A DNA stretch of 13,963 bases from Candidatus Eiseniibacteriota bacterium (GTDB lineage: Bacteria; Joyebacterota; Joyebacteria; Joyebacterales; Joyebacteraceae), in assembly GCA_043819135.1 (NCBI GenBank), contig JBDRFG010000096.1, positions 1-13,963 on the forward strand, given 5' to 3'. This document shows, piece after piece, positions 4,205 to 13,161 of this stretch. The number at the start of each line of letters is the position of its first letter. Within the stretch, counting starts at the first letter, position 1. The position numbers and the translations under genes are program-made. The notes beneath the pieces were generated by a model. It did not search any database. It was not told where the DNA came from and saw only the letters and a program-made list of their open reading frames with translations.

Positions 4205-5698
4205 TTGGCGTGGTACGCGGAGGAAATAGCCTACGGGCTCCTGCCCGTGGCGATCCAGAACGCGATCGTTGCGCGCCACGGCCGGCGCATCTACCGCGAC
4301 CGCTTCGGTGCGGGGTACGACGAGCTCTCTCGTCTTCTGGAAGAGTCTGAGCGAGGCGACCCCGAGCTGCACCGCGCGTACCAGAACGCGCGACTCGCGG
4401 AACTCATCGCCCACGCCTACGAGACGGTGCCGTACTACCGCGAGGTGATGGACGCCCGCTCGCTTACTCCCTCCGACATCACGCGTGTGGAGGATCTTGC
4501 GAAGTTGCCGGTCCTTCGGAAGGAGGACGTGCAGGCCGCAGGAGACAGGCTCATCTCAAGAGCCGCCAATCGCAGGGCGCTCCGCCGCGGCGCCACGTCG
4601 GCGAGCACCGGCATGCCCCTCACCGTCACCTGGGACCGCGCGGTCGCGATGATGAATCACGCGAGCTACATGAGATTGAGGCGCTGGGTCGGCGCGCCCA
4701 TCGGCCGCCCCTACGCGACGATGCAGGGGCGGATAGTGGCTGCCATGGGGCAGAAGCGGCCGCCGTTCTGGCGCGAGAACCCCGCGTGGAACCAGACCTT
4801 CTACTCGACGCTTCACATGAGCGAGGCCAACCTCGTCCACTACGTCGCGAACCTCAGGCGGTCGGGAGCGGAGATGCTCGAGGCTTACCCGTCGTCCGCG
4901 TTCGCCCTTGCGAGGTTCCTCGAGTCGCGAGGCGAGTATCTCCCCTTCAAGGGCCTCATCACGACGGGTGAGCCGCTCCTGTCTGTCGAGAGGGAGATCA
5001 TCGAGGAGCGGTTCCAGACTCGGGCCTACGACTCGTACGGCCAGGCGGAGCGGGTCGCGTTCTCCAGTGAGTGCGAGGAGCACGCCGGGCACCACGTTTA
5101 CCCGGAGTACGGGATAGCGGAAGTGGTCGGTGAGTCCGGCGAGACGTTGCCGGCCGGGCAGTCGGGACTGCTGGTAGGTACGGGCCTGCACAACTATGCG
5201 ATGCCGCTGATCCGCTACGCCTGCGGTGACGTGGCCGCTCTTTCAGAGCGGTCGTGCCCCTGCGGTCGGACGCTCCCGCTTATGGAGGGCGTGCTGAGCA
5301 GGGTGGGCGACCTCATCGTCACGCCCGACGGACGGACCGTCCCTCCCATCATGGTATCGTGGGTGGTCCGGTGGATCGAGGGTGTCACGCAGTACCAGAT
5401 CCGGCAGGACAGCGTCGAAGAGCTGCGCATGCTCGTCGTGACGCCCGCGCCCATCACCGACGAGGAGCGGCGCAACGTGCACCACCACTTCGAGCGGCGC
5501 CTGGGACGCGGCATGCGCGTGACCGTCGAGCGGGTGGACGACATCCCTCGCTCCGACCGCGGCAAGAAGAGGCTCGTCGTGTCCAGGGTGCCGCTTCCGT
5601 GGGGCGGCGGAAACCTGTTGAGCGGACAGGAGGAAGGCGAAGGAGGGTTCGACGACCGGGCGGACGGCGGCGCGTCAGGGGACGCGCACACGGAGTAA
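4205..5698 (+). CDS. Phenylacetate--CoA ligase-like (CapK/PaaK-type) adenylate-forming enzyme (497 aa)
   Basis: HAYETVPYYRE, DLAKLPVLRKED, P-loop TSASTGMP, TTGEPL, YDSYGQAE, NYAMPLIRYACGD, DIPRSDRGKKR. TTG start with GGGGGT at 4195-4200; an in-frame stop at 4178-4180 bounds the start. Confidence 0.85.
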   Translation: MAWYAEEIAYGLLPVAIQNAIVARHGRRIYRDRFGAGYDELSRLLEESERGDPELHRAYQNARLAELIAHAYETVPYYREVMDARSLTPSDITRVEDLAKLPVLRKEDVQAAGDRLISRAANRRALRRGATSASTGMPLTVTWDRAVAMMNHASYMRLRRWVGAPIGRPYATMQGRIVAAMGQKRPPFWRENPAWNQTFYSTLHMSEANLVHYVANLRRSGAEMLEAYPSSAFALARFLESRGEYLPFKGLITTGEPLLSVEREIIEERFQTRAYDSYGQAERVAFSSECEEHAGHHVYPEYGIAEVVGESGETLPAGQSGLLVGTGLHNYAMPLIRYACGDVAALSERSCPCGRTLPLMEGVLSRVGDLIVTPDGRTVPPIMVSWVVRWIEGVTQYQIRQDSVEELRMLVVTPAPITDEERRNVHHHFERRLGRGMRVTVERVDDIPRSDRGKKRLVVSRVPLPWGGGNLLSGQEEGEGGFDDRADGGASGDAHTE

Positions 5699-5725: not shown

Positions 5726-6286
5726 ATGGACTGGGCGACACTGGGAATGGGCATCGTCATCTTCTGTGCTCGCATCGTCGACGTCAGCCTCGGCACGATG
5801 AGGGTGGCCAGCATCATCCAGGGCAGGACACGCGCGGCGTTCATCCTGGGTTTCCTCGAGACGGGCATGTGGGTGTTCATCATCGCGTCCGTGCTCCAGA
5901 GGATCGCTGAGAGGCCCATCGTCGGCATCTTCTACGCGCTGGGTTTCTCCACGGGCAACGTCGTCGGCATCATGATCGAGCGGCGCCTCGCCTACGGGAA
6001 TATGGTCGTGCGCGCGTTCGTGCCCAGCGACGGGGAGAAGATCGCCGCGGCCATCTACGACCAGGGCTTCGGCGTCACTCTGTTCCCGGGGAAGGGCGTC
6101 AAGGGTCCGGTGACGGAGGTGTGCGTGGTGTGCCGGCGCGGTGAGATCAAGCAGATCATCGATACCATAGAGAAAATGTGGCCCGGCGCCTTCTACGTGA
6201 CGGAGCACGCGGGCACCGTCCGCGGGATCAACCGCCCCATCATGCAGCCGCTGACCGGCTGGCGCGGAGTGCACAAGAAGAAGTGA
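5726..6286 (+). CDS. UPF0316/YebE-like (DUF5698 + DUF2179) membrane protein (186 aa)
   Basis: IFCARIVDVSLGTMR, GFLETGMW, YALGFSTGNVVGIMIERRLAYG, followed by a soluble GFGVTLFPGKG...PGAFY domain. GGAGGGAG RBS upstream. Confidence 0.85.
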   Translation: MDWATLGMGIVIFCARIVDVSLGTMRVASIIQGRTRAAFILGFLETGMWVFIIASVLQRIAERPIVGIFYALGFSTGNVVGIMIERRLAYGNMVVRAFVPSDGEKIAAAIYDQGFGVTLFPGKGVKGPVTEVCVVCRRGEIKQIIDTIEKMWPGAFYVTEHAGTVRGINRPIMQPLTGWRGVHKKK

Positions 6287-6330: not shown

Positions 6331-7749
6331 ATGGCGACGAACCGCGCGAGGCGACCTCACTACGAGAGTGACCGCGTCGGTCGCATCGAGCGCGTGGACG
6401 AGCGCGATGTTCTGTTCGCGCGCGCGGATCTCTTCAGGAAGTTCCCCGACGGAAGCCCCGAGAGGGACCAGTACTACTCCGCGCACCCGGAGGCACGCGA
6501 ATACGACAAACGGATCGCCGACGAGCTACGCCTGGGCAGCAGCGGAGGCGACTACGCCGCGCTGTGCACCGGGGTGTTCCACTCGCCTCGTGTCGTGGCG
6601 CGCGACGAGTTCGTGGACGGCGAGCCCGCATCGGAGAAGGTCGTGCTCGCCCCGGAGGAGGCCGCGCGGTGCGTCAAGGCCCTGGCGCGGACGCTCGGCG
6701 CCGACCTCGTGGGGACCGGTCCCCTGAGACCCGAGTGGGTCTACTCGCACGTTGGTCGTTCGTTCGGGAACGCCGAGGGATTCCCGCGGTGGGGATCTCC
6801 AATAGATCTGAGCCACCACACCGACGCCGTTTCCATGGGCTTCCGCATGGAGCCGGACTTCGTTGCGTCGGCCCCCGAGTTTCCGACCGTTCTCGCCACC
6901 GGCGTTGCCTACGCCATCGGAGCGCGTGCTGCGGTACGGCTCGCGCAATACATCAGGAGCCTCGGCTACTCCGCCCGCGCGCACCACGTCTACAGCTACG
7001 GTGTCCTCCCTGTGCCCGTGGCGGTCGACTGCGGGCTCGGCGAGCTGTCGCGTGCGGGATTCCTGCTGACGAGGAAGCTCGGGCTGGGCGTTCGCCTCGG
7101 CACCGTAACGACCGACCTGCCGCTGAGCCACGATGGGCCGACGGACATCGGTGTGCAATCGTTCTGCGAACGCTGCGAGATATGCGCGGAGCACTGTCCG
7201 TCGCGTTCGATCCCGACCGGCGGCAAGACCGAGTACAACGGCGTCATGAAATGGACGCTGGATACGGAGAGTTGCTACCGCTACTGGGCCGTCGTGTCCA
7301 CCGACTGCTCCGTCTGCATGTCGACCTGCCCGTGGACGAAGCCGTCGACGTGGCTCCATCGTGCGTTGACATTCGTGGCCACGTTCAGCGGCCCGCACCA
7401 GTTGTTGATGGTGGCCGCCGAGAAGCTCTTCTACGGGCATCCGGACAAGCGCCGCCGCGGGCGGACCCACGGGCTGGCGAGCCTCCGGCCGACGCGCCTG
7501 CGTCTGCACATGCGGGTGATGGGCGTGGTGGCGGCAGTGCTCGGGGCGGGCGGTATCCTGTGGCAGTGGTTGGATTCGTCCCCGCTCGATCCGGTCGGCT
7601 GGCTGGGTTACCTCGCATGGCTCGCGTGGACCATCCTGGGAGTCGGCGCTGTCTGGACCTTCCTCGCAGAGCGGACGCCGCGTCCGGCCGTCGTTGCGCT
7701 CGTTCTGTTCGGCGCGGTGTCGGCCATTCTTGGCGTCCTCGTCTTCTGA
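6331..7749 (+). CDS. Reductive dehalogenase-family (cobalamin, 2x[4Fe-4S]) protein with C-terminal 3-TM anchor (472 aa)
   Basis: VKALARTLGADLVG, LAQYIRSLGYSARAH, AVDCGLGELSRAGFLLTRKLGLGVRLGTVTTDLPL, FCERCEICAEHCPSRSI, KWTLDTESCYRYW...DCSVCMSTCPW. GGAG RBS at 6323-6326. An in-frame GTG at 6283, overlapping the upstream stop, is an alternative start. Confidence 0.85.
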   Translation: MATNRARRPHYESDRVGRIERVDERDVLFARADLFRKFPDGSPERDQYYSAHPEAREYDKRIADELRLGSSGGDYAALCTGVFHSPRVVARDEFVDGEPASEKVVLAPEEAARCVKALARTLGADLVGTGPLRPEWVYSHVGRSFGNAEGFPRWGSPIDLSHHTDAVSMGFRMEPDFVASAPEFPTVLATGVAYAIGARAAVRLAQYIRSLGYSARAHHVYSYGVLPVPVAVDCGLGELSRAGFLLTRKLGLGVRLGTVTTDLPLSHDGPTDIGVQSFCERCEICAEHCPSRSIPTGGKTEYNGVMKWTLDTESCYRYWAVVSTDCSVCMSTCPWTKPSTWLHRALTFVATFSGPHQLLMVAAEKLFYGHPDKRRRGRTHGLASLRPTRLRLHMRVMGVVAAVLGAGGILWQWLDSSPLDPVGWLGYLAWLAWTILGVGAVWTFLAERTPRPAVVALVLFGAVSAILGVLVF

Positions 7750-7891: not shown

Positions 7892-8236
7892 ATGCCGAGC
7901 CGCAGAGACACGTGGGGTCGAATAGCCACGTTCGTTGGCGTCACCTACGCCTGGTCGTTCATCTTCATGGGTATGGCCATCAAGTCCCAGGAGATCACGC
8001 TGGTCAGCGCCTTCGGCGGGATGTGGAGCCCGTTCGTCGGGATCCTCGTCCCGCGGCTCATATTCCCCGACGGCAGGCGCAGGGGAAGTCTCGGTGGACT
8101 GGGGTGGGGCTGGGGCAAGACCCGGTGGCAGGTGACGAGCTGGTTCCTGCCCGCGCTCTACGTCGGTCTCGCCCACGGCGCGGTCTGGGCGTTCGGGTTC
8201 GCGGGTTTCACTGACGCCGGTCCGGGCTCTGTCTGA
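7892..8236 (+). pseudogene. N-terminal fragment (114 aa) of a CPBP/CAAX (Abi) intramembrane protease-like protein, apparently truncated
   Basis: GGAGG RBS at 7880-7884. FVGVTYAWSF...MWSP...LGWGWGKTRWQVTSWFLPALY resembles the N-terminal helices of CPBP proteins, but the ORF stops before any EExxxR or His motif, 18 nt from the convergent gene. Confidence 0.6.
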
Positions 8237-12106: not shown

Positions 12107-12140
12107 GGGAACATCGGCCCTCCGGGGCCGATGTTCTCTT
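12107..12140 (+). terminator. Strong hairpin, probable intrinsic terminator of the TPR gene
   Basis: GAACATCGGCCC(12109-12120)-TCCG-GGGCCGATGTTC(12125-12136): perfect 12-bp stem with a C(UCCG)G tetraloop, followed only by a weak TCTT tail. Confidence 0.55.
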
Positions 12141-12177
12141 GGAGCCCGGTGGTCTCCCGCGCTGCAGGGCCCACACC

Positions 12178-13161
12178 ATGGATATCCTCACCGACAGGGA
12201 CATATCAGGAACCCCGCTCGACGGCCTCACGGTCGCCGTCATCGGTTACGGCAACCAGGGCGAGGCGCACGCGCTCAATCTGCGTGATTCGGGCGTGGAC
12301 GTCGTGGTGGGCTTGAGGGCAGAGAGCCTGTCGCGCTCGAAGGCCGAGCTGGCCGGGCTCCGCGTGCTCGGCGTGTCAGAGGCGTGCGAGACGGGCGACG
12401 TCATCGCGCTCATGGTCCCCGACGACGTCATGTCCGAGGTCATCGACGAGGCCGTGAGGCCCCACGCCGGCCCTGGCGCCGCGATCCTGTTCGCGCACGG
12501 GTTCCCGCTGCGGTTCGGGGGAGTCGAGCCGCCACCTGGCGTGGACGTGGTCATGGTCGCGCCGATGGGGCCGGGCCTGAGGTTGCGCGAGCGCTACGCG
12601 GAGGGGAGCGGCCTGCCGGGCGCGTACTCGGTCGAGCGCGACGTCACCGGCAACGCGACGCGGGTGGCGCTCGAGTACGCGAAGGCGATCGGCCTGACGC
12701 GTGTCGGGCTCTTCCGGACGACGTGCGCCGAGGAGACCGAGATCGACCTCTTCAGCGAGCAGGCAGTGCTTTGCGGGGGCGTGACCCGGCTGGTGCGGGC
12801 CGGGTTCGAGACGCTGGTCGAGGCGGGATACCCGCCCGAACTCGCCTACATGGAGTGCCTCTACGAGCTGGACCTCACGGTCAACCTGATCGGCCGCTAC
12901 GGGATCGACGGGATGCGGAAGCGCATCAGCCGGACGGCGCTATATGGGGACCTGACCCGGGGCGACGAGGTCATCGGGGATGAGGCGCGTGAGGGGATGA
13001 GACGGATACTATCGGACATACGCGACGGGACCTTCGCCCGGGAGCTCCTGGAGGAGCAGAAGGGCGGGGGAAAGGGCATCGTGCGCCGCATGAAGGAAGA
13101 GGCGGAACGGACCATCGAAGAGGTCGGTAAGGAACTCGCCGACGTCGCGCACGAGGAATAG
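12178..13161 (+). CDS. ilvC: Ketol-acid reductoisomerase, class I (short chain), divergent (327 aa)
   Basis: VAVIGYGNQGEAHALNLRDSG, GLR loop, FAHGF, EETEIDLFSEQAVLCGG, ETLVEAGYPPELAYMECLYE, IRDGTFARE. ATG 12178 gives the standard numbering H107, D190, E194, E226, E230, S251. Confidence 0.9.
   Translation: MDILTDRDISGTPLDGLTVAVIGYGNQGEAHALNLRDSGVDVVVGLRAESLSRSKAELAGLRVLGVSEACETGDVIALMVPDDVMSEVIDEAVRPHAGPGAAILFAHGFPLRFGGVEPPPGVDVVMVAPMGPGLRLRERYAEGSGLPGAYSVERDVTGNATRVALEYAKAIGLTRVGLFRTTCAEETEIDLFSEQAVLCGGVTRLVRAGFETLVEAGYPPELAYMECLYELDLTVNLIGRYGIDGMRKRISRTALYGDLTRGDEVIGDEAREGMRRILSDIRDGTFARELLEEQKGGGKGIVRRMKEEAERTIEEVGKELADVAHEE

Follow-up and report, generated by a model that had tools for sequence, protein, structure and literature searches.

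RdhB has so far been known either as a separate, outward-facing anchor of reductive dehalogenases (RdhA) or, in hybrid enzymes, in the form of N-terminal helices that are RdhB-like. The separate arrangement is that of PceA2B2 from Desulfitobacterium hafniense TCE1 (8Q4H; PMC10624902), in which, according to the accessible text of that report, PceA is Tat-exported, PceB is encoded by its own gene, the pocket faces outward, menaquinone is enclosed by two helices of PceA and helices 2-3 of PceB, and the outward-facing helix 2-3 loop of PceB binds PceA. The hybrids, also called 'transmembrane respiratory' RdhAs, have no Tat signal and carry their own three-helix anchor with an ExE-type loop at the N-terminus, their function being predicted in the available sections of the sources (PMC6797604; PMC12219181). 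A cytoplasmic, Tat-less state is described for NpRdhA (4RAS) and for the 'simplified cytosolic' type, proteins of about 395 aa from Chloroflexota and Desulfobacterota (accessible part of PMC12219181). The same part of PMC12219181 divides RdhAs into four classes, with helices N-terminal or none, and reports that some helix-less members use adjacent membrane genes; the hybrids described in PMC6797604, as far as its available text goes, are all N-terminal. Non-Tat signals and internal helices are noted for Anaeromyxobacter (PMC2330069, accessible sections), and the accessible portions of PMC7565565, PMC9303371 and PMC12908670 contain no case of a C-terminal fusion or an inverted RdhB. In full-text searches of the open-access literature we found neither a C-terminal RdhA-RdhB fusion nor an inverted RdhB, in keeping with an earlier note on this DNA, which did not recognise the arrangement as a described class.

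The window, a 13,963-nucleotide stretch of DNA from a Candidatus Eiseniibacteriota bacterium (contig JBDRFG010000096.1), contains an open reading frame at 6331-7749 on the forward strand, as are all features of the gene given below, which has no internal stops, is preceded by GGAG 4 nt upstream of its ATG, and encodes 472 aa that we read as an RdhA-family catalytic domain followed by a C-terminal RdhB. The catalytic core (residues 1-369; 6331-7437) carries both 4Fe-4S motifs of RdhA exactly where the earlier note had placed them, CxxCxxCxxxCP at 7165-7200 and C-x10-CxxCxxxCPW at 7273-7335. The protein scores 162.5 bits against the RDH model TIGR02486 (cut-off 160.35), and five further fused members score 166.9-175.7 bits. 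NpRdhA and two PceAs are its top PDB matches both by sequence and by fold, NpRdhA (4RAS) being the best on each count (Foldseek E 3.5e-15), with structural-alignment identity to characterised enzymes of ~21-27%; the AlphaFold2 model, with 33 homologues in the alignment, has a mean pLDDT of 75.7 and a pTM of 0.75. Identity as QueG was rejected, since TIGR00276 gives only 36 bits against a cut-off of 200 and the Foldseek E for QueG is 3e-4. We conclude from these comparisons that the protein is a member of the RdhA family rather than QueG, as had been proposed; by family it is likely a corrinoid/iron-sulfur enzyme, with dehalogenase activity and substrate predicted.

Hand-counted alignment with NpRdhA sets Tyr194 (6910-6912) on Tyr426 and Arg255 (7093-7095) on Lys488, that is, on the Tyr-Lys dyad described among the NpRdhA active-site residues F291, S422, M423, Y426, K488 and R552 (accessible text of PMC10463259), and both residues are invariant in 43 of 43 fused forms. 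The earlier note had named a trio, of which these two hold up; its third member, Arg241, aligns by the same hand count with Arg473, which is not listed as catalytic, and NpRdhA Arg552 has no counterpart. The RdhA fold, the two 4Fe-4S motifs and the Tyr/Arg dyad are shared with PceA2B2 as presented in the available text of PMC10624902. Unlike enzymes of the NpRdhA/BhbA type, with which it shares the lack of Tat and, by prediction, the cytoplasmic location, the protein has neither a duplicated cobalamin domain nor a reductase domain and would be membrane-bound through RdhB. The absence of a Tat leader, claimed from the sequence at the outset, extends to the homologues: a Tat motif with a hydrophobic stretch occurs in 0 of the best 120 of 540 matches, two of which have an RR-x-hydrophobic pair without such a stretch, and the protein itself shows no hydrophobic N-terminus by hydropathy and the Tat check.

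Directly after the RdhA domain comes a tail of ~90 aa with three predicted membrane helices. It is introduced by a basic linker (7438-7509, or more narrowly 7447-7509; mean 7.6 Lys+Arg per 28 residues in 42 homologues), and its hydrophobic segments, found at the positions expected from the earlier note (7516-7572, 7594-7665 and 7687-7746), have Kyte-Doolittle 19-residue means of 1.74, 1.75 and 2.86 and coincide with AlphaFold2 helices at residues 390-414, 421-446 and 450-471 (block pLDDT 81-95 over residues 391-470). The same three-helix tail is present in 45, the query included, of the best 120 of 540 matches, with overall identity of 55-82%; both named fused forms among these 120 are labelled Ca. 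Eisenbacteria. The other 75, one of which is a fragment, lack the tail, and most of them end ~50 residues past the second Fe-S motif; hosts of the tail-less sisters are Anaerolineae, Spirochaetota and further genera within the window's family. Locus L034, also of the window's family, has an ORF identical to that of genome G023. An independent contig, ~90% alike, spans 6790-7514 across the core-linker junction. A lost stop or misassembly peculiar to this contig was therefore rejected, because 45 of the best 120 homologues carry the tail and the independent contig runs over the junction.

The tail region at 7510-7746 is an RdhB-homologous three-helix domain by profile matches and by its free-standing homologues. 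Searched separately, as the earlier note had suggested, its profiles rank PceB (8q4h_C) first among 177,635 PDB sequences, with E 0.0034 for a profile of 8 sequences and E 1.4e-5 for one of 61, the latter covering chain residues 7-87 of 89. A canonical RdhB profile, assembled from forty distant sequences chosen for negative charge bias, matches PceB at 1.4e-9, finds 16-19 matches per genome in three Chloroflexota genomes of 1.4-1.5 Mb (Dehalococcoidia-type RdhBs, many of them behind Tat-bearing RdhAs), and matches the fused tails alone with an hhalign probability of 98.4% (E 4.6e-15). The predicted fold of the tail resembles PceB at Z 9.0 (rmsd 3.3, 79 aligned), a value tied by an unrelated helical bundle at Z 9.4. 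The loop between tail helices 2 and 3 (7666-7686) aligns with the ExE loop of PceB, Glu447 falling on the first Glu; all 45 fused forms have both Glu447 and Arg451, but just 7 of the 45 keep the second Glu, which is Thr in this protein and has mostly become Thr in the fused forms; 42 of 57 free-standing forms retain it. Generic family scans of the tail yielded no informative family match, an ESM Atlas search gave no match reaching 0.9, and a cluster look-up of 10 distant RdhB-like proteins returned only the name 'hypothetical'. No separate rdhB was found, either adjacent, as had been noted before, or elsewhere in the genome, where the sole match to the RdhB profile is the tail itself. On homology, the tail is an RdhB fused to RdhA and not a generic anchor.

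A short, 114-aa hydrophobic ORF behind the fusion gene, at 7892-8236 (+), was considered as an RdhB and rejected, with 0 matches to the RdhB profile, Pfam or NCBIfam. Its product may be truncated and is presumably similar to the N-terminal portion of CPBP-type membrane proteases. On the other side, a DUF5698/DUF2179 membrane protein (5726-6286, +) lies 44 nt upstream and is possibly co-transcribed; it is adjacent in two close relatives only. The window also holds a PaaK/F390-synthetase-like ligase gene (4205-5698) and a ketol-acid reductoisomerase gene (12139-13161), the one gene of the branched-chain pathway that we saw there. There is no conserved operon, neighbours recurring in two close relatives only, and no conserved electron-donor gene beside the fusion gene. 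Prolyl-oligopeptidase (S9) genes flank rdhA in L033, L034 and L053, probably incidentally. In a groundwater RNA library, two short contigs match the gene at 6360-6507 and 6707-6876 with 99-100% identity, which we do not count as expression because DNA carry-over is possible.

Free-standing versions of the tail exist. A profile of the 45 tails found ~90-aa genes right behind tail-less sister RdhAs in L053 (E 5e-18), L054 (9e-16) and L057 (6e-15); a full HMMER scan gave 57 matches, forty distant ones supplying the canonical profile above, and the protein search returned 57 free-standing proteins of 81-100 aa and one of 150 aa, mostly unnamed or 'hypothetical', PF27193 being assigned to 44 of the 58 listed. 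A sister rdhA lies just upstream in 8 of 8 metagenome loci found with the profile, and in these eleven split loci the separate ~89-aa gene follows 9-102 nt behind the sister rdhA, in frame in two of them; none of the six split-locus RdhAs with complete starts has a Tat motif. Met394 of the fusion, which is Met in 35 of 42 homologues, aligns with the start Met of the free-standing homologues, and the linker is likely derived from the former rdhA end plus intergenic DNA. Among 29 close-clade loci (L035-L063) we found a whole RdhB in 3, remnants in 2 and none in 24, 5 of which lie <=350 nt from a contig end. The two truncated remnants sit directly behind tail-less rdhA (L051:7058-7309 and L055:7058-7213), apparently showing RdhB loss in progress, and whole-genome profile searches of 9 family genomes with tail-less RdhA gave no RdhB match, so that the anchor is, on this evidence, dispensable in the family.

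We examined the history of the fusion with two trees. In the RdhA tree (IQ-TREE, 56 cores, a subset of 147 in FastTree), a single clade with support of 100/100 and a stem of 0.72 holds the fused, split, remnant and anchorless forms. Within it all 16 fused rows group together (100/100). The N-terminal hybrids, Dethiosulfatarculus included, branch next to the clade and are separate from it. Monophyly of the non-fused forms survives an AU test (p 0.35), and nesting of the fused forms is accordingly unproven by the RdhA tree alone. In the RdhB tree (47 sequences, 87 columns), in which the outgroup was chosen partly by charge and can favour the split, 12 fused tails form one group (100/99) nested in the free-standing inverted RdhBs (96/92), with canonical RdhBs set apart (98/93). 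The trees indicate, as their simplest reading, one fusion from a two-gene operon. Among long proteins with a canonical-type RdhB, a weak search, we found one of 209 aa and no second fusion.

The next relatives, the N-terminal hybrids, show 34-42% identity and differ in layout: their helices are N-terminal (accessible text of PMC6797604 and PMC12219181), whereas the enzyme of the fused forms comes first and a complete RdhB second, as the two genes naturally do. Only the first two hybrid helices match RdhB, at helices 2-3 (hhalign 95%, 44 columns), and the fused tails match the hybrid N-terminus weakly (24%, hhalign), which argues that this fusion is separate from that of the hybrids. One family genome, G023, contains both an N-terminal hybrid RdhA and a C-terminal fusion (L029, L005). 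The tail-less sisters (380-430 aa, many from Anaerolineae) fit the 'simplified cytosolic' type when compared by length and host alone with the accessible description in PMC12219181, and the RdhAs with adjacent membrane genes mentioned there may include the split form. Table S7 in the part available of that paper lists two proteins of 444-446 aa under Eisenbacteria, each with three helices; since it gives helix counts and not positions, fused members may sit unremarked in the catalogue. Cluster Smkt1, likened here by description only, consists of rdhA genes among which 0 of 12 have Tat and one lies beside an rdhB, and its report (PMC3939436), as far as the text is accessible, contains no analysis of fusion or orientation.

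As a measure of orientation we used a hand-made proxy, the Lys+Arg count of the N-terminus and loop 2 minus that of loop 1 and the C-terminus, in which kin are not independent. All 45 fused forms have a positive bias; once the linker is left out, they divide into 37 positive, 7 zero and 1 negative. The 11 split loci are likewise all positive, as are 47 of 57 free-standing relatives; the other ten of these are zero and none is negative, and the mean of the free-standing forms is a small +1.4. RdhBs behind a Tat-motif RdhA have a negative bias in 13 of 14 cases, the exception being misaligned; 52 further representatives divide into 42 negative, 3 zero and 7 positive, the last being near relatives or fusion fragments by inspection, and 35 loci from genome searches into 29 negative, 1 zero and 5 positive. 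In the fused and split forms the helix 2-3 loop, which faces outward in PceAB, has gained Arg, and loop 1 and the C-terminus have lost Arg; thus, the loop and the Tat-less enzyme would face inside. TatC was not found in this genome (a 92% complete assembly) or in any of 8 genus genomes, and was found in 1 of 19 family genomes; it is present in the hosts of three split forms. The reversed Lys/Arg bias, together with the failure to find TatC in the 8 genus genomes, makes it most likely that the RdhAB module was flipped cytoplasm-ward. We therefore predict that RdhB is inverted in the membrane and that the catalytic domain faces the cytoplasm, which supports the C-terminal tether and cytoplasmic core suggested by the earlier note. 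Three points go beyond that note: the tail is an RdhB, its predicted orientation is opposite to that of known RdhBs, and two-gene split forms exist. None of the findings it had named as speaking against its reading (grouping with QueG, a tail not predicted to span the membrane or unique to this assembly, a class already catalogued) was made.

L131:3900-8096 (G045:C27) has a pair of rdhA genes in tandem, of which the second encodes a Tat motif and is frameshifted; behind them lie an rdhB of canonical charge and a gene for an FMN-binding, RdhC/NosR-like protein. In L173:2875-4757 (G236) and in L138, the RdhA begins with a hydrophobic stretch, has a degenerate motif of twin-arginine type and is accompanied by an RdhB with a bias near zero; these RdhAs may belong to the 'novel clade' of PMC12219181, as outlined in its accessible part, or be intermediates.

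We asked how far the quinone site of PceAB is preserved. Helices 341-350 and 356-368 (7351-7434) are the counterpart, by alignment and AlphaFold2, of the menaquinone-holding PceA helices 17/18, and the menaquinone-site Trp/Lys/His on these two C-terminal helices, like the three-helix RdhB with a Glu loop between helices 2 and 3, is shared with PceA2B2 (accessible text of PMC10624902). Trp335, Lys337 and His343 align with PceA Trp487, Lys489 and His495 (the offset of 48 being inferred from chain length) and are conserved in 43, 38 and 43 of 43 fused forms; His343 also occurs in 21 of 22 anchorless relatives, and Glu364 roughly matches PceA Asp515 by extrapolation past the alignment end. In contrast to PceA2B2, Arg499 is replaced by Thr/Ser and the second Glu is mostly lost in the fused forms, and quinone-site residues are said in the available text of PMC10624902 to persist in quinone-free organisms. 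A fold of core against tail scored 0.52, compared with 0.01 for the highest control, with 100% agreement of contacts and a partner pLDDT of 76 or more, which lends weak support to their contact: 116 of 157 solved pairs pass the mark, as do 2 of 215 mismatched ones, scores <=0.60 include 18 of the 157 solved pairs and both passing mismatches, and likeness to PceAB can itself cause a pass.

MqnA/D and MenD over cut-off were each found in 0 of 31 family genomes and MenG in 0 of 19; of the relatives searched, 28 of 30 in the family and 7 of 7 in the genus have a MenA-like gene, most matches being below the curated cut-off. In L177:35-5903, L178, L176 and L179 this MenA-like prenyltransferase gene is part of an rnf operon, its neighbours in L177 and L178 being rnfB on one side and apbE on the other, an arrangement that suggests precursor salvage and a possible Rnf-quinone link; both the menA-like gene and the whole rnf operon are missing from the 92% complete assembly of this genome. 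DmkAB is reported as prevalent in Ca. Effluviviacota, the host lineage and a predicted fermenter (PMC11323493, accessible text, in whose wording 'dehalogen' does not occur). Salvage of a naphthoquinone precursor to demethylmenaquinone is thus plausible, because of the MenA-like gene in the relatives and the reported prevalence of DmkAB. The genome encodes five B12-binding domains over cut-off and gave 0 matches to CobS and to the PF01497 binding protein; the cobamide would therefore be scavenged by some other route. Its ferredoxin-type machinery comprises an Mrp-linked group-4-type hydrogenase and HdrA/MvhD-like and NuoF-like proteins. The Mrp-antiporter-linked complex is encoded at L130 (G000:C28); the two CxxC motifs that bind Ni are intact in its large subunit, as would fit a group 4 hydrogenase.

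We are highly confident of the architecture itself, namely an RdhA-family enzyme with an RdhB tail, split forms, one fusion origin, a reversed bias and no detectable TatC in the genus. Our preferred functional reading, which we hold tentatively and at a little short of an even chance, is a cytoplasmic-face RdhA-RdhB fusion on an upside-down anchor that likely reduces organohalides with electrons from membrane (demethyl)menaquinol. An ancestral rdhA-rdhB pair would have lost its Tat leader, RdhB reversing while the ExE loop stayed on the enzyme side, and the genes would have been joined once by read-through in the lineage of the family. Tail helices 2-3 and helices 341-368 would form a PceAB-like pocket, now facing the cytoplasm, from which electrons may pass from quinol through the two [4Fe-4S] clusters to a scavenged cobamide, the product being protonated by the Tyr194/Arg255 dyad. 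Since the quinol protons would be released inside, no proton-motive redox loop would be closed, unlike in PceAB; the enzyme may serve as an electron sink of a fermenter, with energy, if any, conserved on the donor side (e.g., by Rnf). The quinol step is a weak part of this explanation, given the Thr/Ser at the Arg499 position, the second Glu mostly lost and His343 kept even in anchorless forms.

The changes at Arg499 and the second Glu also speak for the main rival, in which the inside-out architecture is right and the donor is instead soluble ferredoxin or flavodoxin, with a vestigial quinone pocket and an anchor that only holds the enzyme at the organohalide-collecting membrane or docks it on a membrane complex. 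The lack of a detected de novo menaquinone pathway in the family, the ferredoxin-type machinery of the genome, the existence of anchorless sisters, and the use of ferredoxin by NpRdhA (accessible text of PMC10463259) all point this way; we consider it less likely than the quinol-fed reading, since Trp335, Lys337, His343 and the Glu447/Arg451 loop are conserved beyond the needs of a plain anchor and both the MenA-like gene and DmkAB (PMC11323493, available text) are widespread in the relatives or lineage. That the RdhA fold is retained for a substrate other than an organohalide, for example another C-heteroatom bond in a lipid-soluble molecule, seems improbable to us: the margin over the RDH cut-off is just 2 bits, identity to characterised enzymes is low, the Arg552 counterpart is absent, the clade stem is long, the gene stands solo without an rdhC or rdhT-like neighbour and the host is a predicted fermenter (PMC11323493, same text), but the Tyr/Arg dyad is invariant, RdhB is a dehalogenase-specific partner, and QueG scores far below. 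A normally oriented anchor, with the core exported in some other way, such as hitch-hiking on a Tat-bearing partner, or a tail of dual topology, could draw on TatC in the hosts of the three split forms and on the ten free-standing forms of zero bias; against it stand the TatC result in the genus, the strongly basic linker, the lack of any negative bias among the 57 free-standing forms and the fact that no second RdhA was found in this genome, and we regard it as highly improbable.

Returning to the inverted, quinol-linked reading, the broader picture that the whole RdhAB module was inverted and fused once, so that Tat-free sediment fermenters dump electrons onto organohalides, possibly through Rnf and salvaged demethylmenaquinone, is possible and held with some doubt. 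The clade adds a C-terminal fusion to the known forms of RdhB, and with it a candidate natural topology inversion after an export signal was lost; living genomes preserve every state, split, fused, remnant and anchorless. Some RdhAs now classed as cytosolic probably act with a membrane partner that has been overlooked, because the free-standing homologues are mostly unnamed or 'hypothetical'. A one-gene, Tat-independent RdhAB would be a simpler construct with which to test quinol-driven dehalogenation and the role of the ExE loop, and the same construct bears on whether the Tat-less RdhAs of sediment fermenters are dehalogenases.
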